Shown: positions 1,347-26,122 of the stretch, piece by piece | How the letters are laid out: every line of letters starts with the position of its first letter | Numbering within the stretch: the stretch's first letter is position 1 | Assembly: GCA_000091165.1 (NCBI GenBank) | Contig: FP565575.1 | Span: forward strand, 1,110,001-1,142,000 | DNA length: 32,000 nt | Reading direction: 5' to 3' | DNA from: Candidatus Methylomirabilis oxygeniifera | GTDB lineage: Bacteria > Methylomirabilota > Methylomirabilia > Methylomirabilales > Methylomirabilaceae | The notes under the pieces: generated by a model | Told to the model about the DNA's origin: nothing | The model's database searches: none | The model's input: only the letters and a program-made list of their open reading frames with translations | Made by a program: the position numbers and the translations under genes

Positions 1347-1469
1347 TTGTCTACTCCTTTTATACGTTCTTGTTTCGATACACTCTTGCTTGCGTACTTC
1401 TCTTCACTGCGATTAATCATTTCAATTACGTCCCTCTGCACCTCCTTTCTGTCTGCCGCCCAACTGCAA

Positions 1470-1601
1470 TTAGACAGACCGGCTTAATCTGTTTAAGGCC
1501 GGCGGGCTCGCCGTTTTTATCTCGCAAAGACTTGCTCTACCCGAAAACTCTATCGCCACGGCGCTGCGGGGGTTTTTCGGCAATGTGGCCACCTTCTCCA
1601 T
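1470..1601 (-). CDS. Candidate 43-aa upstream ORF in the long leader of the calpain-like gene
   Basis: A 12-nt perfect anti-SD complement (AAAGGAGGTGAT) lies 8 nt upstream of the ATG at 1601. Peptide is MEKVATLPKNPRSAVAIEFSGRASLCEIKTASPPALNRLSRSV. No recognisable family. Confidence 0.25.
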   Translation of the reverse strand: MEKVATLPKNPRSAVAIEFSGRASLCEIKTASPPALNRLSRSV

Positions 1602-1675
1602 CTTCATCACCTCCTTTGATCGAGATAAGGTCAAGTTTTCCTTCCGGCCTGCCTCTCCCAACAACTGTCCTTCGT

Positions 1676-1692
1676 AACAAGCGGCATGCCAA
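1676..1692 (-). promoter_or_regulatory. Sigma54-type (-24/-12) promoter, copy 1, upstream of the calpain-like gene
   Basis: Minus strand reads TTGGCATGCCGCTTGTT. GG is at -24 with correct spacing to a -12 TTGT (GT instead of the canonical GC). This is one of four near-identical copies in the window. Confidence 0.6.
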
Positions 1693-1798
1693 CACCAAAC
1701 GCTCACAACATATCTCTCTAACTCTGCGTATTGATTGACTATATGGTGAGGTCGGGTCGAAAGCAGAAGAGGATCAGATGTCCGAGGTCAGTTTCAAA

Positions 1799-1835
1799 TG
1801 AAATGGGCTGTTTCAGTCGGTTTCACGCTGAAACA
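1799..1835 (-). promoter_or_regulatory. Upstream activator sequence (putative enhancer-binding-protein site), copy 1
   Basis: Plus strand reads TGAAATGGGCTGTTTCAGTCGGTTTCACGCTGAAACA, containing four TGAAAC/GTTTCA half-sites. It lies 106 nt upstream of promoter copy 1. Confidence 0.6.
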
Positions 1836-2170
1836 TTAATGGCCCGTAACGGTCGCCAGCAGATCTGTGAGGGGTCTATCCGCAGGAAGAGAGGCAAAAG
1901 CACTATTGGATCACCGCGCGGCTTTCCACCGATGGCGGACCCCAAGTAGTTCAGTTTCGATCTGCCTGACGGTGGTCATGTCCAGGAAGGTAGGTTGGAG
2001 TGAATTCAGTTCATTTTGTAGCTTACGGCGAATAGTAGATCGCAGTCGGTTGCGCGTAGCGGCGTAGGGTAGGTCGATGACGGGTCAGATGCCCTAATCA
2101 CGCAGGGTAGCAGCAAAGGTCAGGTTGTCTGAGATGCTGCATCATCTTAGCTCGCGCCGATCAAGATCTT

Positions 2171-3310
2171 TTAAGATTCGATTCTCACAACTCCATATCG
2201 CCCTGCTCTGAAGATCCATGACGCAGGAGTTAATACGACTTTCGTCTTTAGGGACGCGTGCCATTGTCCGGCTCCGTTAGTGATCAACGGGACCAGTAGC
2301 CCGTACACGACGATATGAGAGAATACTCCCTCCCAAAGGACCACACTGAAAAACGCAAACGCAACGAAGAGCCCGACTGCTACAGGTCGAATCATGATCC
2401 CAGCAAGGATGACGGCTCCTGCGAGTGTTTCCACTACGGCCACCACGAGGACAAAGGTCTCCGGTGCCATCCCCATGGTAGGGACGTGGTGAAGATCGAG
2501 CACGCCCAGCATGAGGTTGGGTTGCGCGAATTTATATGCGAGCCCAAGATAGAGTATGTCGGCACCAACCAAGAGCCGCATCAGGCACTGTACCCGCTCG
2601 CGGGGCTGGCTTGCGAACCAGGCGCTGAGCGTGGTGGTGCCCGGAAAAGACGGGAGCGGCGCCGCATACGGTCCAGCTCCCTGGAACAACAGGTAGACCG
2701 CGGCCGCGCCAACCAGTCCGATGTAGGCGCACATGGCCTCGCCAAAGAGAAAGAGTCCCAGTAGTCCGAGGCCAAGAAGGGCGACGGCTGCACCCCTCAC
2801 ATAGATACCCAGCAACAAACAGACGGCGATTACGCCTTCGAGGACGGCCACCCAACTCCAGTTGCCAGGGAGCAAGCGCAACTCCAGGTCCGGTGCGCCA
2901 AGCACCGGGCTCTGCATGATCCCAGTGCCCAGTCGCGGCGCCAGCCCCAGGCTTGCCGTCCCCAGCATGATAAAGAGCGCGATGCGCAACGCCACCGGCG
3001 CATAGTCGCCATACGAGATGAGCCGGGCGCGCAGGCGTGAGGCGAGCGTTCGCGATGCGGTATATCGGTAAAGCAGCAAGCAGCCGACCAGACAGAGGGC
3101 CGCCGACAGGTAGATAGACAGGCTGGATGCGTTGAACTGAGTGAAGATTTCCGGCTTGGGTCTCGCGTTCCACTCCACAGCCTGTTCTGGCGTCAAGACC
3201 CAGAGTTCGTGGGCCATGACGCCAGACGCCCAGAGGAGCAGCGAGAGCACGACAATGAGAGACAGGATTAATTGAGCGGGAAAGGTGAGGGTCACGATGG
3301 TTCTCTTCAT
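2171..3310 (-). CDS. Polytopic integral membrane protein of unknown function
   Basis: The ORF is trimmed to the ATG at 3310 (MKRTIVTL...), preceded by AAAGGAGG. It has an N-terminal hydrophobic signal/anchor followed by multiple long hydrophobic segments. No diagnostic catalytic motif recognised. Confidence 0.75.
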   Translation of the reverse strand: MKRTIVTLTFPAQLILSLIVVLSLLLWASGVMAHELWVLTPEQAVEWNARPKPEIFTQFNASSLSIYLSAALCLVGCLLLYRYTASRTLASRLRARLISYGDYAPVALRIALFIMLGTASLGLAPRLGTGIMQSPVLGAPDLELRLLPGNWSWVAVLEGVIAVCLLLGIYVRGAAVALLGLGLLGLFLFGEAMCAYIGLVGAAAVYLLFQGAGPYAAPLPSFPGTTTLSAWFASQPRERVQCLMRLLVGADILYLGLAYKFAQPNLMLGVLDLHHVPTMGMAPETFVLVVAVVETLAGAVILAGIMIRPVAVGLFVAFAFFSVVLWEGVFSHIVVYGLLVPLITNGAGQWHASLKTKVVLTPASWIFRAGRYGVVRIES

Positions 3311-3371
3311 TTTAGGACCTCCTTTAGTTGAACTGTTTAGAAAAATCTTTGCCACGACAAGTATCCTCAAT

Positions 3372-3388
3372 AACAAGCGGCATGCCAA
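3372..3388 (-). promoter_or_regulatory. Sigma54-type promoter, copy 2, upstream of the membrane protein gene
   Basis: Minus strand reads TTGGCATGCCGCTTGTT, identical to copy 1, and lies 62 nt upstream of the ATG at 3310. Confidence 0.6.
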
Positions 3389-3495
3389 AACGGAAATCTC
3401 GCAGCAGGATTCTTTAACTATTTAATTCCAGAGGAGTTAAGGGATAGGCTAGGGCGGCAGAAGGAGGCGGTCGGATGCAAGAGGTGACTGTTACG

Positions 3496-3532
3496 GGAAA
3501 CGGGATATTTCAGTCGGTTTCACTTTGAAACA
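3496..3532 (-). promoter_or_regulatory. Upstream activator sequence, copy 2
   Basis: Plus strand reads GGAAACGGGATATTTCAGTCGGTTTCACTTTGAAACA. It lies 107 nt upstream of promoter copy 2. Confidence 0.6.
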
Positions 3533-3614
3533 AGAGCGAGCGGGGGGCGTCAGCGTCTGATCTGGTAGGCTTCTCGTGATAGGAAGGACAGTCCCACAAA
3601 CAGAAATTGGGATG

Positions 3615-3706
3615 CGTCATTGCGAGCAACCAACGGGAGCGCGGCAATCTCAGCGTCGTTGCCCTGAAGAACTGTGAGATTGCTTCGGCTTCGCCTCGCA
3701 ATGACG
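3615..3706. repeat. Nested palindromic intergenic repeat (GTCATTGCGAG type)
   Basis: CGTCATTGCGAG (3615-3626) pairs with CTCGCAATGACG (3695-3706). An inner GCAATCTCA/TGAGATTGC pair is also present. The element explains the spurious ORF 3510..3725. Confidence 0.6.
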
Positions 3707-3791
3707 TAGGCGGAAGACTTTCCAACCAATAACGGACAGATACGTGGTTACGCGATCAATCTCTTGGGGTAGTAACAGAAGAAGGACGGTC

Positions 3792-5210
3792 TTATTCGTC
3801 TGAATCCACTCGCCGGGCACCCCAGGGAATCTGATAGGCCTTCATTCGGCGCCACAGTGTGGTGCGGCTGATCCCGAGGTCTTTGGCGACTAACGCGAGA
3901 TTACCGTTTCGCGACCGGAGTTGTTCTAGAATATGGTCTTTTTCAACCTGCGTCAGGGTCGGACTCCCCGCTGCGTGGGAAGGATCACCGGGTCTCGGCA
4001 GCCATTCGTCGAGATCGAGCCGCGACCCATTGCTGAGAAGGACCGCTCGCTCTATCAGATTCTGTAGCTCCCTGACGTTACCCGGGAAGTCATAGTCCAG
4101 CAGCCGCTGCATCGCCTCTTGGCTCAGTCCCATGACGGGCTTTTTCAGCTTCTTGCACTGTTTTTCCAAAAAATAGTCGACCAACAGGGGAACATCTTCT
4201 CTTCGTTCCCGTAAGGGAGGAGTTCTGATGGGAAACACACTCAGGCGGTAGTAGAGGTCCGCCCGGAAGGCGCCCTTTTTGACTTCTGATTCCAAGTCTC
4301 TATTGGTCGCCGCAACGATTCGGACATCCACCTGCCTGGATTCGGTCTCCCCGATCCGCCGCATCCTGCCATCCTGAAGCACCTGAAGCAGCTTCACCTG
4401 CATCGTGGGGCTCATTTCGCTGACCTCGTCCAGGAAGAGGGTCCCTCCATCCGCCACCTCGAAGAGCCCTTTCTTGTCCTGCACAGCCCCCGTAAAGGCC
4501 CCGCGTCGATGGCCAAATAGCTCACTTTCCAAAAGGGTCTCCGGGAGCGCGCCGCAGTTTTGCTCGATAAACAGCCTCCCTCGTCTAGGGCCACGATGGT
4601 GGAGGTGGTGGGCGATGACCCCTTTCCCTGTTCCTGTTTCTCCGGTGAGGAGGATCGTGGCGGAGCTGTCGATGACCTTCTCTATGAGATCGAAGAGCCG
4701 CCTCATAGCCGGGCCATGGCCGATGATGGTATCCGAACGGGGATCCTTTTCGACCTCCTGCTTCAGATACAGATTCTCCGTTTGCAGTCGTTCGTTGGCC
4801 GCCTGAAGCTCCTTGAGCAGCCGCTGATTCTCCATGGTCAGCTCATAGCTTTCGAAGGCGCGCTTGACGGTAATTTTCAACTCATTCCGATCCCACGGTT
4901 TAGTGATATATCGATAGATCCTCCCGGCATTGATGGCTCGGATAAGGGACGCGGTGTCGGTGTAACCCGTCAGGATCATCCGGATAGCCTGGGGACGCTT
5001 GGTAATGGATCGCTCCAGAAATTCGACGCCTGTCATCTCCGGCATCCGCTGATCCGCGATGATGAGGGCGATCTCCTGCCGGTCCAGGATCGTCAGTCCT
5101 TCAGCGCCACTGCCGGCCTGAAAGACATCATAGTCCTCCTCGAACGTAAGGGAGAGGGTGGTCAAGATATCGCGTTCGTCATCCACGATCAGCATCCCGT
5201 ATCGGTTCAC
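3792..5210 (-). CDS. Sigma54-dependent response regulator (NtrC family: REC + AAA+ sigma54-interaction domain + Fis-type HTH)
   Basis: REC domain (LIVDDERD...IIADQRMPEMTG), Walker A GETGTGKG, GAFTGA loop (RRGAFTGA) and C-terminal HTH (LALVAKDLGISRTTLWRRM). Start is GTG at 5210, or alternatively ATG at 5195. It begins 1 nt after the kinase stop. Confidence 0.95.
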   Translation of the reverse strand: MNRYGMLIVDDERDILTTLSLTFEEDYDVFQAGSGAEGLTILDRQEIALIIADQRMPEMTGVEFLERSITKRPQAIRMILTGYTDTASLIRAINAGRIYRYITKPWDRNELKITVKRAFESYELTMENQRLLKELQAANERLQTENLYLKQEVEKDPRSDTIIGHGPAMRRLFDLIEKVIDSSATILLTGETGTGKGVIAHHLHHRGPRRGRLFIEQNCGALPETLLESELFGHRRGAFTGAVQDKKGLFEVADGGTLFLDEVSEMSPTMQVKLLQVLQDGRMRRIGETESRQVDVRIVAATNRDLESEVKKGAFRADLYYRLSVFPIRTPPLRERREDVPLLVDYFLEKQCKKLKKPVMGLSQEAMQRLLDYDFPGNVRELQNLIERAVLLSNGSRLDLDEWLPRPGDPSHAAGSPTLTQVEKDHILEQLRSRNGNLALVAKDLGISRTTLWRRMKAYQIPWGARRVDSDE

Positions 5211-5211
5211 T

Positions 5212-7341
5212 TTATACCCCGCTCCACTTTACCGGAAGTTCAATGGTAAACTCCGTTCCCTGGCGATCTGGACTCGATACGCGGATGGTGCCGCCATGTT
5301 TTTGTATAATCCCATAGCTGATGCTGAGGCCCAGGCCCATCCCTTCCCCCACCTTCTTTGTGGTAAAGAAGGGATCAAAGATCTTCGACAGATTCGACTC
5401 AGGAATGCCGTGCCCGTTATCCCTGATGACGATGATGACCGTATCTCCATGGGAAGCCGTTCTGATCCAGACTTCTCCAGTCTCATGAATGGCTTGAGCG
5501 GCGTTGAGCAGCAGATTCATGAACACTTGATTGATCTGGCCAGGATGACATTCCACCTGAGGCAGGACTCCATACTCGCGATGGACAGTGATCCGATCTC
5601 TATACTCCTTTACAAGGAGGTTGAGGGTTATCTCAAGTCCTTCATGTAGATCGGCAGGCGCAGGATCGACATCATCCGCCCTGGCAAAGGTCCCGAGGTC
5701 CATGACAATTCTCTTTACCCGTTCTGTCCCCCGCTTGCAACTGGAAATCAACTCATCCAATGTATGAAGAGTCCGGTCGAGTCTGGCCCCTTTTTTCAGC
5801 TCTGCGAGATGCCGATAGGCGGGACTATCGGGCAGTTCGACCGTCTCATAGGCCTCAAGCACTCCTTTAAGGTTTAGAATATATTCGGCTATGAAATCGA
5901 TGTTACTATGGACGAAGCTGACGGGATTATTCAACTCATGAGCAACCCCCGCTACCAGAAATCCCAAAGAGGCCATCTTCTCCGTTTGGAGAAGCTCATT
6001 CTGGGTCTGGGCCAGCTCCTGGAGGGTCTTCTCCAACTCGTGATGCCCTTTTACCAGCTCTTCGTTTGTCGCAGCAAGTTGGGCGGTCCGCTCCTTGACC
6101 TTTTGGTCCAGCTCCCGGTTCATCGCCTCCAGGGCGAGACGTCGTTCCCGCTGGGCAGAGAAGACCTGAGCGATCAGATACCCGCCGTAGATCAGACCGA
6201 ACTGACCCGTGCCGGCGAAGACAGGAAGCCAAAGATTCCCTTTGACAAATAGCCCATATGCGACTACGAGAAAAAGCGCAGAAAGGCAGAGGAGCGCTCC
6301 GAGGGCCCAGAGCGGCTTGAGACGGAGGGCAATGACACTGCCGATCAGGGCCAAAAGAAAGAGGAGACTATACCGCACCCCTGAGGAGGGTTCGTGTACC
6401 ATCCGATCTGCCAAGAGGTTAGCGACGATCGTTGCATGGATCTCAACCCCGGCGGTGGGACCGCCTACGTGAAAGGAGAACGGAGTAGGGAAGACATCCG
6501 GAGAGGTTCGTTGCGGTTCCGGCGCCGCCTGGATGGCGCGGCCGATCAGGACAATCTTGTCGGAAAAGGTCCCCGGCGGAAGCATCCGATCAGCCTCGAG
6601 GGCCTGGTAGTAAGAGATCGTCTTGACGGTCCTTGGGGGACCAAAATAGTTGATCAGAATCGCCTTCGAGAGATCGGTCCGGATTCCATGCGGCTTCTGT
6701 CGTAGGTAGAACCTGACGATTTGATCGGAGAACGAGGGAAGGACGGAGGAGACGGGAAGGGGTCGTCTCACGGTCCCGTCAGGGTCGATGGGAAGGGTGG
6801 CGATTCCCACTGACGCGGCCGATCTGAAGGGTTCGATGGGATCGACAAGGATCGTCTGACGAAAGAGCGGATCAGCGGTGACGGACTGCTCGCTGGCGAG
6901 GACGACGTTTCCAGCCTCCCGAATGGCCCGTGCCAACGCCCGATCGTCCTCAGGCTGGGAAGGTTCTGCGAAGAGAATATCGAAGGCGATGACCCTGGCC
7001 CCCGCCTTCTTCAGGTGATCGATCAGGCGGGCATGAAGGCTCCGAGGCCAGGGCCACTGCTTCGAGATCTCGGCAAACGACGGCTCATCGATGGCGACAA
7101 CAACGACCTCAGGTGGAGGCGCCATGGCGCCACGGAGCATAAAAAGGAAGTCCAACCCTTTCAGCTCGAATAGGGAAAAGAGGGGGAGATTGGCTAGAAC
7201 GAGCATCACCGCAAAAGTCGGCATCACGATGAGGGCAGCTTGCAGCGCAGGCCACACTCGATCATTGCTGGCCACTAATATCCCCACATGGTCTACTCGA
7301 GTGAATGATGGCGCCCACATCACAGATGTGGGCGCCATCAT
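5212..7341 (-). CDS. CHASE2-domain sensor histidine kinase
   Basis: The N-terminal region is CHASE2-like ([10 protein letters not shown]...[29 protein letters not shown]), followed by TM segments and a coiled coil. Kinase motifs are the H-box [12 protein letters not shown]-box [10 protein letters not shown]1 DNGHGI and G2 GMGLGLSIS. The exact start is uncertain because there is no strong SD. Confidence 0.9.
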
Positions 7342-7469
7342 GGATGGGCATAAGTCGACATCGTTTGTGGACCATCATCTCACAGGAGGTGCGCAACCTG
7401 ATATATCTTAGCATTAGCGTCTACGTGGCTGTAGAGGGATAGACGAGCCCGAGAGGCCGACGGACGCGC

Positions 7470-7724
7470 CTACGGCTTAGGGAAACAGTACAATTTCCCG
7501 CCTTGAATGAGACAGATAGTAGGATTCGTGGTGGTAACAATGGTGACGCTGGTAATGTTCTCCACCGACTTGCCGTCCAGGTTAGCTCTCATGCCCTTCG
7601 GGATGTTTTCACCTTCCTTCTTTTCATGGTGAGGATGGATTACTCGACCCATCCCCTTACTGACGCCGCCCTCATAAACCTCGGTAATGTTTCCCTGGTT
7701 GTCGAACTCCACTGTGAATGCCAT
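7470..7724 (-). CDS. Small hypothetical protein (84 aa, C-terminal CxxxxxxxxC) between the barrel gene and the kinase gene
   Basis: The ATG at 7724 is preceded by AAGGGAG 8 nt upstream. The track ORF extends to a GTG at 7808, which sits directly on a GGAGG and so has no spacing. The protein has no signal peptide and no recognised family. Confidence 0.55.
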   Translation of the reverse strand: MAFTVEFDNQGNITEVYEGGVSKGMGRVIHPHHEKKEGENIPKGMRANLDGKSVENITSVTIVTTTNPTICLIQGGKLYCFPKP

Positions 7725-7849
7725 CTTTCTGCTCCCTTCTGCGTCCGCTGTGGTTGAATTAATCACCGCTTTTCCGTTTACGTTCCCCTTGGACACCGCG
7801 TACCTCACCTCCTTTCATTGCCGCCCCCGGATGGGCCTCAACATAACAG

Positions 7850-10800
7850 CTAAAACGCCACGGTCAACCGAAACAGGACCTGACGTTCTGGTGCTACCGT
7901 CGGACTACGAGGATCTGTATCCTGAAAGTGGAAGCGATTGTCGAACAGGTTTCTCACGTCGAGGGTGAGCAGGCCCCTTCGGTTAGGCAAGCGATAGCCG
8001 ATAGAAGCGTCAACGACCCAGAACCGATCGCTACCGGCCAGGACATCACCTGTAAGCCGATTCTGGAACTCTCCCTCCTGATCGACGTAGGTAGTTTTGA
8101 GCCGCGCCCGGAGGCCTGACGAGTGGAAGAAGCTCAATCCCAATGGAACCCGATGGGTATGGGTCATTGCTATTCCTTCCTCTCCAAACGCCACACGTCG
8201 CCTAAACCGTTCGTACTGATACTCGGCACTGATCGCAAGCCAGGCCCTTGGAGTCCAGTAGAGGTAGGCCCGTCCCAGGTCCTCTTCCCAGTCCCTGTCT
8301 CGATATTTCCCTTCCCCTGGTGCGAAGCCCGGCGCGTCGGTATCCCGCCGCGAAAACTCCGCCCCTCCAAACAGGGCCGTGGAGAGCTTCTGATCGACGG
8401 CAACACCGTACCGCCACGCTTCTGTGCCGTTCACGTCGTCAAAGAACTGATTGAAGCCGGCCACCTGGGTCGGCTCGATCGTTTGATCCGACAGGAGGGA
8501 TCGCTTCAGGACCCTGAAGACAGCGGCCCGCAGGGTTGTATCGGGAAACGGGTTCCAGGTTACCCCGAACTTCGGGTTGAACTGGTTTCGCTCGAGAACA
8601 GAAAGGACCTTTCGATCATCCTTGTTTCGGGTCGTAATCTTGAAGAAATCGGCGCTCCCGCCCAAGGTCCACGTAACATTATGCGGAAAGTTGATCAGGG
8701 AGTAGAGATAAAGATTGGTATGGCGATTATCATCTTCTGTCAGTGCTAAGGGGAATGACAGGAAACTGGTTACGTCCGTACGATCGGCGTCGAAATGACC
8801 GGCCCCGCTGATCAGATGTAATCGTTTCCAACGGAACAAATACTGAATCTCTCCCATGAAGCCGTCCGTGTCCGTCAAGAGGTCAAACCCCTTGACCATG
8901 AAGTTACGGGTGTCAAAATCAGCGTTTCGGTAGATGCCGGATGCGATAAGGTGAGAGTCGGGTGTAAAGGCATGATGAAGACCCAGTCGTATCGATCGGG
9001 TCCGATCATCCTGTTTTTGATCCGGAAAGAAATTGTTCCGATCGAATCGCAGCGGCAGGTCGCCTCGCTCAAAATCCTTGTATCTGAACTCTGCCTGGAC
9101 GCTGGTACTTGGCGAGAGGCTCATCTGGACAAAAGCGTTGTAGATGTCCTGGTTCTGGTCGTTATTTTTTCGGAATCCGTCGGTCTCCTGATGGAACTGG
9201 CCAAGACTATAGGAAACGTTTCCATGGACACCAGAGAGGACCACTTCATCACCAAGTGTGTCCTTTTCTCCAGCGGTTCCCGACGCCAGGAGGCTCACCC
9301 GATCGCGGACAAATAGAGGATTAAACTCATTCAACGAGGGATCTTGCGGCCCGGCACTGTCTAGAATAAAGAGATTGCTTTCCGCCAGTTGCGGCTGCAC
9401 CGGGGTAATGCTGATCGGTTGAAGAAGCTGGGACTGGAGCAGCTCACTCACCCTGGCGACCTCATGGCGAGGTAGGGCAGCATAGGAGTCAGACAGGAAC
9501 CGATGGGCCGAGTAGTTAGATGGATCCTCAATGGCTGCCTTCCATCCTTCAACTAACGCAAGCTGTTGGAATCCCAGCTCATTATACACTCTGGCAAGAG
9601 TCGCGCCCCGCGCCGCGAGATCCTGATCCATCAACAGGCGTGATCGGTAAACCGCACGATTGTCATTCAGCTCGATCGATCGCTGTAGATCCTGCATCGC
9701 CTCTACTGGACGGTTGACGCTTTGCTTGCGAATGGCGTCATAGAGCCATGGGGTGGGATCGTTCGGATCCAGTGTCTTGGCAATCGCCAAGGGATCCATC
9801 TCTAACGGATAACGTTTCACCTCGTAGAGCGCTTTCCCTAGATAGCTCCAGAATAAGGCAACTTTGGGCTCCAGGAGGGTAGCCATCCACATCTCCTGCA
9901 CTGCCTCCTCTGTCTTATTCTGCCTAAAAAGCGCGAGGCCGCGGCCGAGGTGAGGCTCTCCGCGCGTGGAATCCTGCTCAATCGCCTGGCCAAAGGCCGA
10001 GAGCGCTTCCTGGACCTTCCCCTGGGTCAACATGAGGAAGCCCCATGTGCTGGTGATAAGGGGATCGTGGGGTGCCCTTTGACGGGCCTCCTCAACCAGA
10101 CTTAATGCCTCGGAGAGCCTTCCGAGGCCAAAGAGGAGGCGGCTTACCTGGATCATGGCTACAGGGTTGTCCGGCTCCAACTCCAGTGCCTTCCTGGCGG
10201 CCTGAAGCGCTTCCTCCAGACGGAACTCGGCCTGCTTGACCAGGCTCAGGTCGAGATAGGCCGAGGCGGAGGACGGATTGGCGAGGATCGCCTGCAGCGC
10301 CGCTTGCTGCGCTACCCCCTTCTCGTTCCGAACCAGGGCAATATTGGAGCGAAGACCATGAGCCGGCGCGTAGCCTGGATCGAGGGCCACGGCATGCTCT
10401 AACTCCTGGAGCGCCTTGCCCACCCGGCCCTGAATGAGGTAGAGAAGAGCCGTCTGAGTCGGCGGCTGTGGGGAGGATGGGAAACGACTTTTGGCCTCAG
10501 CAACGACCTCTTCCATCTCATCAAAGCGATTAAGTCGATAGAGGGCGTTGGCCTGTCCCATAAGGGCTGAAAGGGTAGGAGGCGTCGCTTGCCGAAACGT
10601 TCTCAAGGCCTCCTCGGTCCTCCCTTCCACCAGGTAGACCCACCCCAGACCTGTGAGCGCCCTCGGGCTCCCCGGATCAAGGGTTAGGGCTTTCTCAAAT
10701 CCTCTTCGTGCCTCGACCGGTTTGCCCAGATCGAAGAGGATCTCGCCCAGCGTGACCGTCGACTCCGAATCCGCCAGTCTCGAAGCCGCCCTTCGTTCGG

Positions 10801-11512
10801 CGTCGACCAACCGTTCCGGGAGAAGATTCGGCGCGACGCCGGTCAGAGGATAATCCCGGAAGCCGACAATCCCGGGGTAGTAAAGGGACCATTGGACCGC
10901 ATCGATGGGCCTCAGGAGGATGGTCTTGCTTGGGGGTTCGCCTACCCTGGCCGTGGCCGCCTCTCCCGCCCTCACCATGACACCCCCCTGAGGATTGCGA
11001 AACTCAACCACCCCCTCGAGTACGGCAAGACGGGATTCATTGCCTGGATCGACCGAGAGGTCAAACTCCGTTCCCCGGATCGTTGCCGTCACCGCCGGCG
11101 TTCGAATCTGCAAGGGCCTGCCGCGACTTCGACTCCAGACCTCTCCCTTCAGCAGGTTGAGGATGGTCTGCATGGGGCCCGCCGCCGCACGGGTCGCGCT
11201 CCCGGGGGGCGACATGACCTCTGTAATCTCCAGGGTGCTGTTGGAATTGACCTTGATCTGTACTTCGTCCGAGAGGAGGATGGCCGCTCGACTTCCCGGA
11301 CCCGTCCTCACCACATCTCCAGGCATGAGGACGTGCCGGAGCGCTACCGGCTGCCACTGCTGGACCCGGAAGATCTCAACCCTTCCCACGACGCTCACAA
11401 TTCTCCCTGCTTCTTGGGCCGTTGCAACACTGATGCTCAACATAAGCCAGACGATCGAGCAGAGGAGGATGGGAAGGACTCCGCGCTGGGTTGGGACTTG
11501 GCGACAATTCAT
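7850..11512 (-). CDS. Secreted FecR-domain + TPR-repeat + C-terminal outer-membrane beta-barrel fusion protein (1220 aa)
   Basis: Signal peptide (LLCSIVWLMLSISVATA/QEAG). FecR-like N-domain (GRIVSVVGRVEI...PGDVVRTGPGSRAAILL...VKVNSNSTLEI). About 450 aa of TPR-like repeats follow (e.g. ALTLDPGSPRAL, ALELEPDNPVA, AIEQDSTRGEPHL). The C-terminal ~450 aa are rich in alternating beta-strand patterns and end in the OMP signature LFRLTVAF. GGGGAGG SD lies 9 nt upstream. Confidence 0.85.
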   Translation of the reverse strand: MNCRQVPTQRGVLPILLCSIVWLMLSISVATAQEAGRIVSVVGRVEIFRVQQWQPVALRHVLMPGDVVRTGPGSRAAILLSDEVQIKVNSNSTLEITEVMSPPGSATRAAAGPMQTILNLLKGEVWSRSRGRPLQIRTPAVTATIRGTEFDLSVDPGNESRLAVLEGVVEFRNPQGGVMVRAGEAATARVGEPPSKTILLRPIDAVQWSLYYPGIVGFRDYPLTGVAPNLLPERLVDAERRAASRLADSESTVTLGEILFDLGKPVEARRGFEKALTLDPGSPRALTGLGWVYLVEGRTEEALRTFRQATPPTLSALMGQANALYRLNRFDEMEEVVAEAKSRFPSSPQPPTQTALLYLIQGRVGKALQELEHAVALDPGYAPAHGLRSNIALVRNEKGVAQQAALQAILANPSSASAYLDLSLVKQAEFRLEEALQAARKALELEPDNPVAMIQVSRLLFGLGRLSEALSLVEEARQRAPHDPLITSTWGFLMLTQGKVQEALSAFGQAIEQDSTRGEPHLGRGLALFRQNKTEEAVQEMWMATLLEPKVALFWSYLGKALYEVKRYPLEMDPLAIAKTLDPNDPTPWLYDAIRKQSVNRPVEAMQDLQRSIELNDNRAVYRSRLLMDQDLAARGATLARVYNELGFQQLALVEGWKAAIEDPSNYSAHRFLSDSYAALPRHEVARVSELLQSQLLQPISITPVQPQLAESNLFILDSAGPQDPSLNEFNPLFVRDRVSLLASGTAGEKDTLGDEVVLSGVHGNVSYSLGQFHQETDGFRKNNDQNQDIYNAFVQMSLSPSTSVQAEFRYKDFERGDLPLRFDRNNFFPDQKQDDRTRSIRLGLHHAFTPDSHLIASGIYRNADFDTRNFMVKGFDLLTDTDGFMGEIQYLFRWKRLHLISGAGHFDADRTDVTSFLSFPLALTEDDNRHTNLYLYSLINFPHNVTWTLGGSADFFKITTRNKDDRKVLSVLERNQFNPKFGVTWNPFPDTTLRAAVFRVLKRSLLSDQTIEPTQVAGFNQFFDDVNGTEAWRYGVAVDQKLSTALFGGAEFSRRDTDAPGFAPGEGKYRDRDWEEDLGRAYLYWTPRAWLAISAEYQYERFRRRVAFGEEGIAMTHTHRVPLGLSFFHSSGLRARLKTTYVDQEGEFQNRLTGDVLAGSDRFWVVDASIGYRLPNRRGLLTLDVRNLFDNRFHFQDTDPRSPTVAPERQVLFRLTVAF

Positions 11513-11667
11513 GCGACGTTACCTCCCCGTGATAACCAGCTTCTTTGACTCACCCTACCTTGAAAGTGACTATCTGAAGTGAGCTGTAATGTCAAGACTA
11601 TAATAAGACCACAAAATACCTGTCTTTGGCTTAATGAAGAAACTGTGCCAACGCTTTACGCTCAGAC

Positions 11668-11937
11668 TCAAAGCAGGGACGCTATTTGGGACTCGTGAGA
11701 AAAGGTTAAAGCGCGTGCGCGCGCGGCTGCCGCCGTGCGCGTCCCCACCCCAAGCTTCTCGAAAATATGCTCCAGGTGCTTTTGTACCGTCCGTGGACTG
11801 GTATCGAGAATCTCTCCAATCTCAGCATTGGTCTTCCCATCGGTTACCCAAGTGAGTACCTCCACCTCCCGGCGCGTCAGACCGAGGCGTTCAGAGAAGA
11901 TGTTGTCGTGAAACCATCTCGTGCTGATCCTGTCCAT
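11668..11937 (-). CDS. Stand-alone LuxR/GerE-type HTH transcriptional regulator (89 aa)
   Basis: LTRREVEVLTWVTDGKTNAEIGEILDTSPRTVQKHLEHIFEKLGV matches the LuxR C-terminal HTH. The ATG at 11937 has a GAGGAGG SD 5 nt upstream. The longer track ORF start at 12003 lacks an SD. Confidence 0.85.
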   Translation of the reverse strand: MDRISTRWFHDNIFSERLGLTRREVEVLTWVTDGKTNAEIGEILDTSPRTVQKHLEHIFEKLGVGTRTAAAARARALTFSHESQIASLL

Positions 11938-12102
11938 AGCTACCTCCTCTGATTCGGTTATCAGGTTTACTCTCGGCACGTGAACCGGGTGCTTGGTCGC
12001 CATTGAACAACTCAGGGCTGCCGCGTCTCAGCATCTTCTGACCGGAGGGTGTAGTCAACGTCGGACTTGACTCGTCGTCAAGTCACGGCAACTGTATCCA
12101 TT

Positions 12103-12119
12103 AACAAGGGACATGCCAA
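12103..12119 (-). promoter_or_regulatory. Sigma54-type promoter, copy 3, upstream of the LuxR-type gene (and possibly the whole sensor operon)
   Basis: Minus strand reads TTGGCATGTCCCTTGTT. It lies 166 nt upstream of the ATG at 11937. Confidence 0.55.
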
Positions 12120-12227
12120 AACGACATCCCCCTTTCAGATTCCTCTATCTCTGCATTTTCATGACGCCTTGTGACTATTTCATTTCCAGAGTGAGGAGGG
12201 GATCAGCCACAAGAGAGCCCTGCAACA

Positions 12228-12264
12228 TGAAACATAATGTTTCACGCGGTTTCACTCTGAAACA
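12228..12264 (-). promoter_or_regulatory. Upstream activator sequence, copy 3
   Basis: Plus strand reads TGAAACATAATGTTTCACGCGGTTTCACTCTGAAACA. It lies 108 nt upstream of promoter copy 3. Confidence 0.6.
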
Positions 12265-12574
12265 TCGGCGCTATAGGGATGTTGATAGCTCATCCGGTGA
12301 ACGCTGACCGTTCCGATCCAACCCGCACAGCCATTACGAGGACGAGTTCTATTTCGGAGTAACCGTAGTGGACGGGTAGGGTGAATTCGGTAAGTGTCGA
12401 GCAACAAGCAAAGAGGGGAGGGAAGCAGACAGCAGGGGTAACGGGCAGAATCCCAGTGGTGTGAGTCGCCCTGTCGGTGTACACACGGAATCTGACAGGC
12501 TTTCATCTGGAGCCACAAGACGTCAGCAGGCGAGCATTACTGGACTATCGGCGGTCTGCCGATCGAGCTGTGAC

Positions 12575-13790
12575 TTAGAACCGCCAGGTGAGCTTGGCCA
12601 AGACGCTGCGCTGGACCTCTGTCGAATTGAAAGGATCTCCGATGCCTATCTTTCCGAACCCCGGATGCCGGTCGTCCAGGAGATTCTGGCCGATCACGCC
12701 CAGATCCAGTGCGCTCGTGGGACGACGGTAGAGGTATTATCCATGGCGTCGATCGTCCCGCGCGTGTCAAAACCCCAGATGATATCGTGAGCCGCGCCCA
12801 AACCGAACCGGGGCTGGACATTGAGGTCGACCGTATCGCGAGCCTCTCGGATAATCTGGCGCCGGTCCGTTCTGTCATAGTAAAACTGTACTCGGAACTC
12901 CGATCCGTCGATCAGGCGCCGCCGCCATCGCGTCAGAATGTTGCCGCCCGCGAAATCGTCTCTGCTGTCACGCGTCGATGCAAAGGGAGGCGCGAGCTGG
13001 GGGGCAGTCGTCGTCTCGTTGAAATTACCCGTGTAGATGTTCTCCATGGATGGTGACCGAATCGCGCGCTGAGGCGTCCCAGTCGATCCGGAAGCCGCCA
13101 CGATACAATTCCCAACTATCGGCGGCATCTCGATCGTTTGCGGTGACGAAGTGGTCGCGATCGAAATACTTCGCATAGGCCCGGTAGTGCGCCGCCTCTG
13201 ACAGCTTCCCGCCGCAACGCAGTCCGACAAACCCCTGTTCCTCATTGCCGATCCCACCTTCAAGGTAGCCGCCCTGGGTCGTGCCGGCGTGCTTGGTAAT
13301 GATATTAATGACACCGTTGATGGCATTGGCACCCCAGAGCGTTCCGCCGGGCCCGCGGATCACCTCGATCCGGTCGATATCCTCCAGTAGGGTATCCTGC
13401 ACATCCCAGAAGGTCCCGGCAAACAGCGGCGTGTAGACGGTCCGGCCGTCGATTAGGACCAGCAGCTTATCTGCGAAAAGGCCGTTGAATCCGCGAGCAG
13501 AGATGGTCCACTTGTTGGCGCTGAACCGTGCGACCTGGATACCAGGCGCCACGCGTAACGCCTCAGGAATGCTGGTGACGCCGGATCGGCGGATCTCCTC
13601 GCCAGTAATAACGTAAGCGGCTGCAGGACTACTCTAGAGCGGTTCTTCCTTGATGAGCGCTGAGATGAGTTCTGCTCTCCGGGCGTATCGCTTGAGCCTC
13701 ACGCCATCTACCCCGCTTCCCGGGCCAGGTTCGGCCCGACATACTACAAGGGTAAGACCAACGGTTAGAACCGGACAGGCTGTCAGAATC
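12575..13790 (-). pseudogene. Degraded TonB-dependent receptor (plug domain, barrel fragments, C-terminal TonB-dependent-receptor signature)
   Basis: The plug is AAAYVITGEEIRRSGVTSIPEALRVAPGIQVAR...IEVIRGPGGTLWGANAINGVINIITK. It is preceded by an in-frame TAG at 13634-13636 and a signal-like stretch with no start codon. The reading frame changes at least twice (ORF fragments 13025..13552, 12694..13332, then a third frame). The third frame ends NLLDDRHPGFG...AKLTWRF* at 12575. Only about 1.2 kb remains. Confidence 0.75.
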
Positions 13791-14022
13791 AGTGCTGAAT
13801 TAACAAATTACAGGCGCCTATCGCGTATCGTTACAAATGAGAGCTGGCGTGCCCACGTCACATGATTCCGAGATGGAGTATCTGACGCAAACCCATGTCA
13901 AGACTATAATGCAGCCCACCAGGCAACAGTCTTGAGTGTTTTTTGTGCGAGGAATCGCGGTCGCACCTTTAGGCGGGAAGAAGTAGAGGCGAGGCGGCTG
14001 TGACATGCGCGGGATATATCGA

Positions 14023-14367
14023 TTATTTCGTGTGCTGCAAGGCCTCGTTAATCTGCGCGAGGAGGTCTCGGAGATGAGAGAGCTCCGCCTCTATGGTTGC
14101 TCGACCGAACGGCTCGTCCCGCAAGATCGCTTCAACCACATCATCGCGTGACATCAAAGGACCGCTCATCACCTGCACCTTGTAGTCGGGACCCACGCGC
14201 TGTCGCTCGATCACCAATCGCTTCAGATGTTCTATGGTTAATCGTTCAAGAGGGTAGATCTCCTCGGCGCGGGAGATGATCTCATCGAACGTGATGAACT
14301 TGTTCCGATGGGGATCATAACATAGGGGCTTCTTACGGTCCGGGCCTTGAATGTTCGGCATTGCCAT
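14023..14367 (-). CDS. Hypothetical 114-aa protein, paralog of the N-terminal domain of the upstream 375-aa protein
   Basis: AGAGGAGAG SD lies upstream of the ATG at 14367. A hand alignment to residues 42-108 of the neighbouring protein is ungapped, with 18 of 67 residues identical. Shared blocks are IER, PD[FY]K, S[KR]DD[IV][IV], FG[KR] and KKPL. Confidence 0.7.
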   Translation of the reverse strand: MAMPNIQGPDRKKPLCYDPHRNKFITFDEIISRAEEIYPLERLTIEHLKRLVIERQRVGPDYKVQVMSGPLMSRDDVVEAILRDEPFGRATIEAELSHLRDLLAQINEALQHTK

Positions 14368-14427
14368 TTGTCGCTCTCCTCTTTTATGCTAGTTGCAAGT
14401 GGTGAACGGATTCGCCTTGCAGAGTAT

Positions 14428-14454
14428 AGCACCGCCCGCCCTGCGGGCGGTGCT
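14428..14454 (-). other. Perfect 12-bp GC-rich hairpin between the 375-aa gene and its small paralog
   Basis: AGCACCGCCCGC-cct-GCGGGCGGTGCT. No U-tract follows on either strand, so it looks more like an intercistronic stabiliser or attenuator than a classic terminator. Confidence 0.4.
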
Positions 14455-14507
14455 ACGTTCGTCCGTTTCCACCCAACCGCGCCTGTCTTGAGTTTTCTGT
14501 AGAGAGT

Positions 14508-15635
14508 TCAGTCTTCGAGTACACCTGCCCCGAGCAGAGCGGTCTCCATCTCGAGTGGTCGGATCGGGAAACAGATCTTGACCCAGCGGTACGGTGTAAT
14601 GGTGGCTGTGGTGGAGCCGTGCAATCTCATGTGGTCTCGATCAAAGGTCAACCATGCGGCTGCCGCGGTGTTCGGCACCTGCGCAATGGCTGCATTGAAT
14701 GCCTGCTGTGCGGCGTTGAATGCCTGCCCGGCAGTCGCTCCCGCCGCCATCTGCAAGTCAAATGTGGCATCCGACTGAAGGAAGAGCAGGAACTCGTTGA
14801 CCGGTGTTGACGAGTTGTCCCACACGAACGTGAAGTTTTCATCGTAGCCGCAGTAGGCCTTCGCACCATTGGTTACAGTATTGGGTCCGAGATCCCGGGC
14901 GGTACGACAACTCAGAAAATGGAGTGTCTTGTCTTTAACCTCAGTAGGATCGTAGTGACTGACTCGGAGGATCGGATCACCGGAATGGCCTGTATACACG
15001 TCATAATTGCCATGGCCGACGCCGCCGATGTACGTTGTCAAGACGTTCTTGGCCACCGGGACAAAGTTTGCTCGCACGTCGTTTGTACCGGTCAGCGCAA
15101 CAACGGTAAAGCCGCGCGTTTGGAATTGGGAATGCACGTTTGCAATGCGCCAGTTTGCTATCGGCGTAGTGACACCGTCGGTGGTGTTCTCGCAGAAAAG
15201 CGCTCGGTTGCTTACACGCAGCCAGATGCAGTGCTTGACCGGCTTCCATGGAGGCGGAATCTTGGTCGGTTTTGAAGGTGCCTGTGGCCATGACGGTTTC
15301 TTACCGTCCATCAGGCTGGTGGCGAGTTCCGAGCAGTAGCCCATCTCGGTCCTGGTGGCCAGCTTACCGAATTCAGTTCCTTTTTTTATGTGATCGATAA
15401 TGTCGTCTTTCGAGTAGACGCCGAGTTGAATAATACCGAGCTTGAAGTCCGGCTCCAGGGAGTAGCGTTCAATGGCGAGCTTGGCCTGTAGTTCCTCGCT
15501 CAATGTGAACAGTGATCCCATGCCCAGTGAAGGTGTTTCCGCAACCTGCTGGACCGTCAGAAACCGCCCCTCCGAAGTAATCAACAGCGGTTTCTTCGCA
15601 GCGAATGGCTTGAACTCCAATTGTCGGATTTTCAT
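14508..15635 (-). CDS. Hypothetical 375-aa protein with a C-terminal putative clan CD (gingipain/C25-like) cysteine peptidase domain
   Basis: The ATG at 15635 is preceded by an AAGGAG SD. The motif TTYIGGVGHGNYDVYTGH is followed, 35 residues after the GHG His, by LHFLSCRTA and then NGAKAYCGY. This matches the strand-HG ... strand-C ... GAxAxxG layout of clan CD peptidases. No signal peptide. The family assignment is inference only. Confidence 0.8.
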   Translation of the reverse strand: MKIRQLEFKPFAAKKPLLITSEGRFLTVQQVAETPSLGMGSLFTLSEELQAKLAIERYSLEPDFKLGIIQLGVYSKDDIIDHIKKGTEFGKLATRTEMGYCSELATSLMDGKKPSWPQAPSKPTKIPPPWKPVKHCIWLRVSNRALFCENTTDGVTTPIANWRIANVHSQFQTRGFTVVALTGTNDVRANFVPVAKNVLTTYIGGVGHGNYDVYTGHSGDPILRVSHYDPTEVKDKTLHFLSCRTARDLGPNTVTNGAKAYCGYDENFTFVWDNSSTPVNEFLLFLQSDATFDLQMAAGATAGQAFNAAQQAFNAAIAQVPNTAAAAWLTFDRDHMRLHGSTTATITPYRWVKICFPIRPLEMETALLGAGVLED

Positions 15636-15871
15636 GTCGTTTCTCCTTTTTGCGACCACCGCCTCTGCAATGAAGAGGCGAGCCGATGGTGGTATGTCGT
15701 TTCTCTTGTCTGCGCGCCTCGCATCCTATGTTATCTTCGGGTGGTTTGGGGGTAGCTGAAACGAGTAGTTTTCATTTGATCAGACTTTTACCCGCTATCT
15801 AAAATGGTTCTCACAGTGCACCACCTCCTTTTGATGAACAACGAATCGAGCATCAGGATAACCAGGTGATT

Positions 15872-15888
15872 AACAAGCCGCGTGCCAA
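15872..15888 (-). promoter_or_regulatory. Sigma54-type promoter, copy 4, upstream of the 375-aa gene
   Basis: Minus strand reads TTGGCACGCGGCTTGTT. It lies 237 nt upstream of the ATG at 15635. Confidence 0.6.
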
Positions 15889-15995
15889 TACAAACGAAAC
15901 ACCGCAGCTTTTCGTAATTCCGCGTTTCTATTGTTCCCGATCGGAGCGCTTCATCGGGGGCAACGGCTGATTCGATGCATCTGGAGAATTCCAGA

Positions 15996-16032
15996 TGAAA
16001 CGCGATGTTCCAAGGGATTCCATTCTGAAACA
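15996..16032 (-). promoter_or_regulatory. Upstream activator sequence, copy 4
   Basis: Plus strand reads TGAAACGCGATGTTCCAAGGGATTCCATTCTGAAACA. It lies 107 nt upstream of promoter copy 4 and is the most diverged copy. Confidence 0.5.
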
Positions 16033-22198: not shown

Positions 22199-22843
22199 CT
22201 ATAAGGTGACGACCCGCCACGCCGCCTTTTGGTGCAAAGCAGAGAACGATAACCGAACCCGGAAGTCCTCGCCGAGGGTGGGTGCGTTGCGGCCGACCCT
22301 CCAAATGGTATCGTTTTCGTCCGGGTTGTATTGATCTTGAAACACCCCGCTTGGGATACAAGCTATCTTTATCTGCTTCAGCAACGACCCCTTCCCATCG
22401 CCCTTGTAAATGTATTTAACGACTATTGTCACCGTCTGCATCTTCACGCCAGACCTTTCAATGAAGGTCGGCAAGCCGCCCTTAACTTTTTCGACCTTTC
22501 CAGCCCTGTGCTGCCGCACTTCCATTGACGTTTGCGACATCTGAATCGTGGCTGTGTTACCGTCCTTTTCAGCCTTCGAGTCAATCATTAAGGCAACTTC
22601 CGTTTCTCTATCTGGCAGAAACACGAGAGCGGCCCGTTTATAATCGATTTTTCCGTACAGGCGGATATGCACTCGTGAAAGTCCGAGGAAATCTAACGCC
22701 TCCCGGGTAATGTCTTCTGCAACATCAGCGGCCAGATCAGTTTCCTCGCGGAATATTTTGACCGCCTCTTTGTGATAGTCGCGGATCGCCCGAACAACCA
22801 GGCGAAGGCACGAGCGTTCTACCTCCTCAATCTGAATCTGCAT
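22199..22843 (-). CDS. Putative type II restriction endonuclease (PD-(D/E)XK candidate)
   Basis: It lies immediately downstream of the methyltransferase and overlaps it. A candidate catalytic motif is FLPD-x9-DSK. The start is uncertain: ATG at 22843 or TTG at 22867. No family recognised by eye. Confidence 0.6.
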   Translation of the reverse strand: MQIQIEEVERSCLRLVVRAIRDYHKEAVKIFREETDLAADVAEDITREALDFLGLSRVHIRLYGKIDYKRAALVFLPDRETEVALMIDSKAEKDGNTATIQMSQTSMEVRQHRAGKVEKVKGGLPTFIERSGVKMQTVTIVVKYIYKGDGKGSLLKQIKIACIPSGVFQDQYNPDENDTIWRVGRNAPTLGEDFRVRLSFSALHQKAAWRVVTL

Positions 22844-26087: not shown

Positions 26088-26116
26088 TTGACATGCTTGA
26101 CCGCTCAAGCTATATT
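26088..26116 (+). promoter_or_regulatory. Sigma70-type promoter TTGACA-17-TATATT driving a leaderless transposase mRNA
   Basis: The -35 TTGACA is at 26088-26093, followed by a 17-nt spacer and the -10 TATATT at 26111-26116. The ATG at 26123 is 7 nt after the -10. This is the same layout as the promoter at 21806. Confidence 0.5.
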
Positions 26117-26122
26117 ATAAGT

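Follow-up and report, generated by a model that had tools for sequence, protein, structure and literature searches.

A 32,000-nucleotide (nt) stretch of the genome of Candidatus Methylomirabilis oxygeniifera (M. oxyfera), referred to here as the window, carries four repeated modules on its minus strand, each of which combines a 37-nt element with a sigma-54-type promoter. These repeats are most likely the enhancer-plus-promoter cassettes of a single sigma-54 regulon comprising five gene units, the fifth module being located just past the left edge of the window. The motifs, their spacing and their conservation make it quite probable that the modules are sigma-54 promoters served by an enhancer that is bound by the regulator encoded in the same cluster. 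The type of control is an ordinary bacterial one, and the locus is a well-delimited new example of it, not a new mechanism.

Predicted promoter elements, enhancers and module geometry

The promoter pattern TTGGCAYGYSSCTTGTT was found exactly four times in the window, always on the minus strand, and had no match in 100 dinucleotide-preserving shuffles, so that none is expected by chance. This confirms the four elements listed in a preliminary description of the same DNA. P1 (TTGGCATGCCGCTTGTT, 1676-1692), with GG at -24 and GT at -12, is located upstream of a calpain-like unit. P2 (again TTGGCATGCCGCTTGTT, 3372-3388) has the start codon of a membrane-protein gene about 60 nt downstream, P3 (TTGGCATGTCCCTTGTT, 12103-12119) heads a gene string that runs luxR, FecR/TPR, small protein, kinase and regulator, and P4 (TTGGCACGCGGCTTGTT, 15872-15888) stands ahead of a unit encoding proteins of 375 and 114 amino acids (aa). 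The spacing between the -24 and -12 elements is canonical (GG-N10-G(C)), every copy reading TGGCAY-N5-TTGT with zero length variation. The GG at -24/-25 is equally constant, as TGG(C/T)A(C/T) is present in all four window promoters and in all 14 distinct promoters of the Methylomirabilota, a set drawn from the window, the fifth module and the loci L003, L004, L011, L012, L017 (two promoters), L021 and L029 (three promoters). At the level of the transcript, a search of the whole window at Rfam gathering thresholds returned no RNA family; thus, the long leaders behind P1 and P4 are not known riboswitches.

A further canonical-looking match, CGGCACGTGATTTGC at 27091-27105, upstream of a phosphatidylserine decarboxylase gene, was set aside. 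It is without an enhancer and is probably a chance occurrence, matches with two mismatches numbering 29 against 27 expected.

A search with the 36-nt enhancer pattern TGTTTCA-N3-TGRAAYC-N3-TGRAAYA-N4-RTTTC returned four minus-strand matches in the window (1800-1835, 3497-3532, 12229-12264 and 15997-16032), where none is expected. A position weight matrix, for which 19 distinct instances were used, scored these four copies at 42-54 bits and detected no further copy above 18 bits over the 32 kb. The corresponding 37-nt upstream activating sequences (UAS), all on the minus strand, are UAS1 (TGTTTCAGCGTGAAACCGACTGAAACAGCCCATTTCA, 1799-1835), UAS2 (TGTTTCAAAGTGAAACCGACTGAAATATCCCGTTTCC, 3496-3532) and UAS3 (TGTTTCAGAGTGAAACCGCGTGAAACATTATGTTTCA, 12228-12264) and UAS4 (TGTTTCAGAATGGAATCCCTTGGAACATCGCGTTTCA, 15996-16032), the most degenerate copy at 42 bits. 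On the coding (minus) strand the element reads TGTTTCA-N3-TGAAAC-N4-TGAAACA-N4-GTTTCA, of which the plus-strand consensus proposed earlier is the correct reverse complement. It is composed of a dyad GTTTCA-N3-TGAAAC and a dyad TGAAAC-N5-GTTTCA with centres 20 bp apart, and a further TGAAAC half-site follows in some copies, 2-3 nt past the 37-mer (at 1791-1796 for UAS1). The preliminary description had counted four TGAAAC/GTTTCA half-sites. This holds for the basic element, but copy 4 has the degenerate forms TGGAAT and TGGAAC and, because some copies carry the extra half-site, a description as two or three dyads suits the element better: GTTTCA-N3-TGAAAC and TGAAAC-N5-GTTTCA(-N2/3-TGAAAC).

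The gap between the 37-mer and TTGGCA measures 106, 107, 108 and 107 nt in the four window copies, the same figures as first given, and stays within 106-108 nt across 11 distinct Methylomirabilota modules. The dyad centres lie some 150 bp before the predicted start. Every module is intergenic and co-oriented with a gene that lies 50-320 nt downstream and has a Shine-Dalgarno sequence. Outside the motif blocks the copies show no conservation, with overall pairwise identities of 54-60%; for the full set of non-duplicated modules the range is 54-61%.

Two semi-conserved blocks were also observed in the spacers of the Methylomirabilota modules: TGCATCYGATCC, about 20 nt past the enhancer (e.g., window 1755-1775, minus strand), and AATAAAC…TTAGAGAAA, about 25-55 nt before TTGGCA (e.g., window 1705-1740, minus strand). 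Neither block fits the E. coli consensus for integration host factor (IHF); a bending protein or a co-regulator may bind at them. The interval from the regulator gene to UAS2 also holds a perfect inverted repeat of 12 nt (CGTCATTGCGAG / CTCGCAATGACG, 3615-3706), with arms 68 nt apart; this repeat has no second copy in the window and could be a terminator-like or repeat element.

A fifth module and the duplication at P1

The four modules first described are all real, and the total is five. The fifth complete module (L001 15884-16044) is located about 700 bp to the left of window position 1 and consists of the enhancer CGTTTCAGCGTGAAACCGACTGAAACAGCCCATTTCA, a gap of 106 nt and the promoter TTGGCACACCGCTTGTT. 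It stands upstream of the gene for a 316-aa sensor-less HisKA/HATPase kinase (L001 16080-17030), and an IS200-type (Y1_Tnp) transposase gene separates it from the calpain-like gene.

Over the stretch from the enhancer to approximately +1, P1 matches the fifth module at about 88% identity, against 54-61% for the other pairs. The P1 leader, about 320 nt long, contains two small open reading frames (ORFs). The first (1476-1610, minus strand, about 45 aa) begins MKME; as the kinase behind the fifth module begins MKMES, this ORF is probably a remnant of the duplicated 5' end of the kinase gene. Given this shared ORF start and the high identity, P1 looks like a copy of the fifth module set before the calpain-like gene. 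The second leader ORF (1347-1424, minus strand, 25 aa) ends in an ATGA, where its stop codon and the start codon of the calpain-like gene overlap.

The identity of this pair, with a transposase gene between its members, establishes that duplication has occurred and would suit an explanation in which the four copies are passive duplications or mobile-repeat remnants with no regulatory role. Such an origin is extremely improbable for the set as a whole. The other pairs share the motif blocks only, at fixed spacing; all copies occupy the intergenic, co-oriented positions described above; and modules are found at orthologous positions in other Methylomirabilota, the enhancer being kept across phyla ahead of unrelated downstream genes.

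The regulator and the P3 operon

The proposed enhancer-binding activator is a response regulator of the bacterial enhancer-binding protein (bEBP) class encoded at 3792-5210 on the minus strand. The earlier assignment of an NtrC-type activator to this gene was borne out by its domain order, a receiver (REC) domain, an AAA+ domain, an AAA lid and a Fis-type helix-turn-helix (HTH), with Pfam matches to Response_reg (4e-19), Sigma54_activat (2e-69), AAA_lid_14 and HTH_8 (4e-13). The translation shows ADQRMP, Asp53 of the receiver and an intact GAFTGA, the sigma-54 contact loop of the AAA+ domain. In NCBIfam the protein fell below every equivalog cut-off (AtoC, 368 against 714 bits; PrsR, 357 against 503; NtrC, 348 against 559; ZraR, 318 against 760), and neither the kinase nor the TPR protein of the same operon matched an equivalog. 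No hydrogenase, PEP-CTERM/exosortase or ato genes are present near the locus. An identity as a PEP-CTERM regulator system (PrsR, PrsT, EpsA) was accordingly rejected, the NCBIfam matches being sub-threshold and exosortase genes being absent nearby.

The gene string behind P3 lies entirely on the minus strand. Its first gene encodes an 89-aa LuxR/GerE protein that consists of the HTH only (11668-11937). This is followed by a 1220-aa secreted protein with FecR, TPR repeats and a C-terminal TonB-receptor-like beta-barrel (7850-11512), a conserved partner of the CHASE2 kinase, and by a small protein (7470-7808; 77-112 aa depending on the genome call) whose gene is kept between the FecR/TPR and kinase genes in several phyla. 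The 709-aa CHASE2 sensor histidine kinase (5212-7341) comes next, the 3' end of its gene overlapping the bEBP start. Its Pfam matches are CHASE2 (8e-59) and HATPase_c (9e-27); the HisKA match is weak, and the H-box AHELNNP is present. Because P3 heads this kinase/regulator string, the intergenic gaps contain no convincing terminator, and weak sigma-70-like sites precede the FecR/TPR and small-protein genes, positive autoregulation with a basal bypass is likely.

Conservation of enhancer and regulator across phyla

To the evidence from the window itself, two independent searches add the distribution of the enhancer and of the regulator. In the DNA scan, the enhancer pattern alone was compared with 185,579 species, one genome each, with about 0.5 chance matches expected. 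It returned 13 loci, among which the source genome's own modules do not figure: four in Methylomirabilota, six in Competibacteraceae/Contendobacter (Gammaproteobacteria), two in Calditrichia and one in Spirochaetota. The Spirochaetota match was discarded as a likely chance hit: the surrounding DNA is low in GC, and nothing resembling a promoter follows. A scan of metagenomes added further enhancer copies from Methylomirabilota and Competibacteraceae.

In the protein search, the regulator's best named matches after its Methylomirabilota orthologs were full-length proteins of 62-64% identity in Candidatus Competibacter, Contendobacter and Competibacteraceae, and a 74% identical protein was found in Binatia. 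Methylomirabilota and Competibacteraceae are the two lineages named most often among the regulator's best protein matches. The DNA and protein searches, made independently, thus led to the same distant lineages. A common feature of the orthologs is the recognition helix SRTTLWRR (LVAKDLGISRTTLWRRMK vs LVARDMGMSRTTLWRRLK), and their genes again come just after one for a CHASE2 kinase, often also after one for a FecR/TPR/barrel protein of 1110-1237 aa. In the two Calditrichia genomes the enhancer is found next to a more distant activator gene; in Caldithrix this gene encodes a PAS-type activator with an SRTTLWRK-type helix, and the element overlaps the gene's start.

In Competibacteraceae and Binatia the promoters behind the enhancer are canonical. 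All five usable Competibacteraceae modules have the enhancer, then 82-84 nt, then TGGCATG(G/A)AAGATGC, with canonical -24/-12 elements, and their spacers contain the IHF-like ATAACTnaTTGATGGATAA, close to the reverse of the E. coli-type consensus WATCAANNNNTTR. On the Binatia contig a degenerate enhancer directly follows the regulator gene, and TTGGCATAGCCTTTGCC comes after 109 nt. The combination of TGGCA, canonical spacing, dyads well upstream and canonical GC in the orthologous promoters is the geometry expected when an enhancer-binding protein acts at a -24/-12 promoter, as had been claimed from the window alone. The genes behind the Competibacteraceae modules encode an AAA_21/AAA_15-DUF4435 ATPase, a GH15 glycosidase and a secreted protein without a family; because these are unrelated, regulon content is lineage-specific.

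In the Contendobacter locus L005, the enhancer and a canonical sigma-54 promoter are followed, about 340 nt past the enhancer, by an ORF for a 699-aa fused AAA_21/AAA_15 + DUF4435 ATPase, an architecture that resembles anti-phage ATPase-nuclease systems. A Competibacteraceae-like locus (L032 3650-3696) carries a partial enhancer with two GTTTCA/TGAAAC dyads, the middle half-site missing. It lies about 250-300 nt upstream of a FecR/TPR gene, and no clear -24/-12 promoter follows it.

GT at the -12 element

The preliminary description had singled out GT in place of GC at -12 as an oddity. It is indeed present in all four window copies and extends to every one of the 14 distinct Methylomirabilota promoters, which read TGGYAY-N5-CTTGTT at the equivalent place, CTTGTT being invariant (14/14) and usually followed by A. 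It is not unprecedented, however. The Salmonella promoters of pspA (TGGCACGCAAATTGTATT), pspG (TGGCATGATTTTTGTAAG) and hydN (…CGTGTATA) have GT at -12 and are bound by sigma-54, and their operons are sigma-54-dependent (PMC3844500, Table 3). By analogy with these PspF-dependent (pspA, pspG) and FhlA-dependent (hydN) promoters of Salmonella and E. coli, where the -12 element likewise reads TGT and not TGC (PMC3844500), the T for C would not be a sign of non-functional sites. The activator family and the target genes differ between the two cases. Moreover, GT is in the minority among many GC promoters in the enterobacteria, whereas here a whole regulon has GT in one phylum and GC in other phyla.

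At the aligned -12 position, GC is found in five of five Competibacteraceae copies (TGGCATGGAAGATGC) and in Binatia (TTGGCATAGCCTTTGCC). Because the orthologous modules carry GC there, TTGT is, as judged from the alignment, the positional equivalent of TTGC/ATGC, and the T appears to be a derived state fixed in this lineage's regulon copies. When about 100 kb of Methylomirabilota sequence was searched with a relaxed promoter pattern for any sigma-54 promoter of the GC type, the only intergenic matches were the regulon's own GT promoters; two further matches, both in L029, lie inside annotated genes.

A more far-reaching reading holds that the uniform T reflects a shifted -12 preference of the Methylomirabilota sigma-54 and, separately, that the two proteases of the regulon form a stress or death programme. 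Stated in this way, it is doubtful. If the shift were true, the horizontally shared CHASE2/bEBP regulon may have kept its enhancer with promoters re-tuned to each host's sigma factor. Alternatively, the GT may reflect simple inheritance within the regulon. As a separate matter, the envelope-signal circuit of M. oxyfera could possibly have been extended to co-induce two cytoplasmic cysteine proteases in stress-triggered proteolysis or a cell-death programme.

Alternative readings and the proposed circuit

Several observations weigh against assigning the modules to sigma-54 and to the cluster's own regulator. The GC of a canonical -12 element is replaced by GT in all 14 Methylomirabilota promoters, and a generic sigma-70 scan also flags P2 (TTGGCA-17-GATACT) and P3 (TTGGCA-17-TACAGT), with 9/12 matches each. 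The enhancer is assigned to the regulator at 3792-5210 by co-occurrence, and the cluster contains another DNA-binding protein, of the LuxR type. The kinase/regulator loci L023 and L026, one of them from Competibacteraceae, have no enhancer above 5 bits. The E. coli-type IHF consensus was not seen by eye in the Methylomirabilota spacers. Finally, rpoN is located neither in the window nor in the flanking and relative loci inspected; that the genome possesses rpoN is suggested by the two GAFTGA-bearing activators. A search for literature on Methylomirabilis with sigma-54 or rpoN yielded nothing relevant.

The GT dinucleotide and the two flagged promoters are what a sigma-70-type promoter would explain, in which TTGGCA serves as the -35 element, a -10-like GAYAGT follows 17 nt downstream, and the regulator works in sigma-70 mode. 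Such activation is a property of Rhodobacter capsulatus NtrC and HupR, and JGI calls several of the regulator orthologs 'HupR/HoxA'. Yet the -10-like hexamer varies between copies (GACAGT, GATACT, TACAGT, CTGGTT, GCTAGT, GATCGG, GACGCG), CTTGTT, which would be mere spacer under sigma-70, is the invariant part, the regulator retains the GAFTGA loop, and the orthologous enhancers of Competibacteraceae and Binatia precede canonical TGGCAT-N5-NTGC promoters. On these grounds the sigma-70 reading was rejected as very improbable.

The promoters could also be sigma-54-dependent and the enhancer be bound by a different protein. Candidates are the 89-aa LuxR/GerE protein, which belongs to the core of the cluster, and some other activator; Methylomirabilota do encode a second one with GAFTGA a few kb from the cluster. 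The enhancer-free L023 and L026 loci would fit as well. This alternative is nevertheless improbable. The enhancer and the regulator orthologs co-occur in the same two distant lineages, as the independent DNA and protein searches found; the recognition helix is conserved among the orthologs, and that of the second activator (QRTYLSRL) is unlike the bEBP's SRTTLWRR; the Caldithrix element is placed at the start of an activator gene with a helix of closely similar type; and tblastn detected no LuxR homolog in the Competibacteraceae loci.

Under the favoured assignment to sigma-54 and the 3792-5210 regulator, an extracytoplasmic signal would be sensed by the CHASE2 kinase, probably in concert with the FecR/TPR/beta-barrel and small proteins, and the kinase would phosphorylate the receiver domain of the bEBP. 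Dimers of the bEBP would bind the GTTTCA/TGAAAC dyads upstream of the start, as the co-occurrence suggests, and form an ATPase ring. This ring would loop to sigma-54 RNA polymerase in the closed complex at TGGCAY-N5-TTGT and open the complex. Since the activator and the sensor proteins would all be expressed from P3, the design would be one of positive autoregulation, and the weak sigma-70-like sites inside the operon may give basal expression. Other predicted outputs are the DoxX-like membrane protein (P2), the sensor-less second kinase (fifth module) and the LuxR-type HTH protein, the presence of which suggests a regulatory cascade. The outputs confined to M. oxyfera would be the cytoplasmic calpain-like protein (P1) and the caspase-fold protease with its small partner (P4).

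Conserved core and recent additions

A sister Methylomirabilis genome, in which the regulator is 90% identical, has the cluster order recA / luxR - FecR/TPR - small protein - CHASE2 kinase - regulator / membrane protein / kinase. It carries three modules, before luxR, the membrane-protein gene and the kinase gene, and lacks the calpain-like gene as well as the 375-aa and 114-aa genes. Other Methylomirabilota loci agree with a core of three units, and modules occupy orthologous positions in L003, L004, L011, L012, L021 and L029. By this comparison, the conserved core comprises a LuxR-led operon (with the FecR/TPR/barrel protein, CHASE2 kinase and activator), the DoxX-like membrane protein and the second kinase. 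Because the sister genome is without them, the calpain-like and caspase-fold protease units appear to be M. oxyfera-specific, recent additions to this core. The preliminary description had placed both protease units within the regulon; modules do precede them, but they are additions and no part of the three-unit core.

On the metagenome contig L017 (2140-2960, minus strand), a deletion has taken out the FecR/TPR gene, the kinase gene and most of the regulator gene, of which the last 37 codons are left, joined to the 5' end of luxR. The P2-type enhancer before the membrane-protein gene of this contig has decayed half-sites (TGTTCCAGAACTAAACCGACTGCAAC…). This single case fits a functional link between regulator and enhancer, as far as the sequence can tell.

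Proteins encoded by the proposed target genes

The P1 target (174-1346, minus strand) is a 390-aa cysteine protease of the calpain family (Peptidase_C2) with no signal peptide. The match to PF00648 scores 75.3 bits against a cut-off of 23.8, and the Cys, His and Asn motifs of the triad are present in the translation (GDCYF, GYHAY, RNPWG), in agreement with the calpain-like label given earlier. The P2 target (2171-3310, minus strand), a core member of the regulon, is a 379-aa polytopic membrane protein that shows a weak DoxX match and is almost confined to the Methylomirabilota.

The first protein of the P4 unit (375 aa; 14508-15635, minus strand) matched no Pfam or NCBIfam family. An AlphaFold2 model with a pLDDT of 85.7 shows a C-terminal domain of predicted caspase/CHAT/gingipain-like fold, for which Foldseek returned caspase-11 (3e-5), a SAVED-CHAT protein (4e-5) and RgpB (8e-4) from the PDB. 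G207-H208-G209 and S242-C243 are invariant among 34 homologs. The protein is therefore predicted to be a clan CD cysteine peptidase with a His-Gly…Cys dyad, and the clan-CD-like label of the preliminary description holds as a prediction, supported by the fold of the model and the invariant His208 and Cys243. Homologs of almost uniform length, 226 in all and 55-80% identical, are found in Planctomycetota, Phycisphaerae, Bacteroidales and Chloroflexi. The model thus points to an uncharacterised, unclassified family of caspase-fold proteases in its own right.

The second protein of the unit (114 aa; 14023-14367, minus strand) has no family. Its paralogy to the 375-aa protein, claimed earlier, is confirmed for the N-terminal domain of the latter (26% identity, E 4e-9) and does not extend to the rest of that protein. 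The adjacent pair of 375-aa and ~110-aa genes (window 14023-15635, minus strand) recurs at L027 4350-6025 and L028 6001-7544, the Phycisphaerae and Bacteroidales loci that were inspected for homologs of the 375-aa protein; no module is present upstream of the homologs in these two lineages. PADLOC assigned no defence-system model to the two proteases, the 114-aa partner, the membrane protein or the small protein, and gave generic HTH matches only for the LuxR protein.

Relation to known systems

The locus resembles NtrB/NtrC-type systems (glnAp2, ZraSR-zraP, AtoSC) in that its regulator combines a receiver, an AAA+ domain with GAFTGA and a Fis-type HTH, its cognate kinase gene is immediately upstream, tandem dyad enhancers stand 100-170 bp upstream of a -24/-12 promoter, and the regulator operon is probably autoregulated. 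Unlike these systems, it pairs a CHASE2 kinase with a FecR/TPR/beta-barrel protein, uses the half-site TGAAAC, and has targets unrelated to nitrogen, zinc or acetoacetate metabolism. The HupR/HoxA label that JGI/KEGG places on the orthologs is consistent with NtrC-family response regulators of the same domain order. However, no hydrogenase or HupT/HupUV-type sensor genes are located near any inspected locus, and the kinase here is of the CHASE2 type; the label looks like the product of a nearest-KO assignment.

The 'BiofilmReg' operon of Burkholderia contaminans also encodes a secreted FecR-domain protein beside a CHASE2 kinase and a response regulator (PMC5192318). Its regulator is of the winged-helix type (trans_reg_C), however, its FecR protein has LysM in place of TPR and a barrel, and no enhancer/promoter regulon has been defined there. 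The link between a CHASE2 sensor and a caspase-fold protease likewise has a counterpart in metacaspase-CHASE2 fusions, such as the Trichodesmium protein (PMC3501461). That link is made in a single polypeptide, whereas here it is a predicted transcriptional one, limited to M. oxyfera and involving a distinct, unclassified caspase-fold family.

The signals sensed by CHASE2 domains remain unidentified (PMC5192318), and a CHASE2 kinase with a defined activator, a 37-bp enhancer and five target promoters offers a ready reporter system for finding them. The enhancer/regulator pair, kept from Methylomirabilota to Gammaproteobacteria with a GT/GC switch at -12, represents a natural experiment on the adaptation of sigma-54 promoters. 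The locus also illustrates how a regulon may grow, by the copying of a whole enhancer-promoter cassette before newly acquired genes. In addition, two bacterial protease families that are poorly understood would here be controlled by one inducible system, in an uncultured and environmentally important methane oxidiser that depends on nitrite.

Neighbouring sequences

Fragments of a TonB-dependent receptor (12694-13552, minus strand) occupy the interval from UAS3 to the P4 unit. With Plug and barrel-like parts in different frames, they probably represent a frameshifted or truncated pseudogene; they are absent from the sister genome. Further along the window, the stretch from 22 to 27 kb has a lower GC content (~50%) and contains genes at 22199-23843 (minus strand), 24818-26050 (plus strand) and 26093-26953 (plus strand). 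The genes of this stretch encode an SfiI-like restriction enzyme, an N6/N4 DNA methylase, an HTH + IrrE/M78 peptidase and an IS1-like transposase fragment, and the stretch is probably a mobile island unrelated to the regulon.

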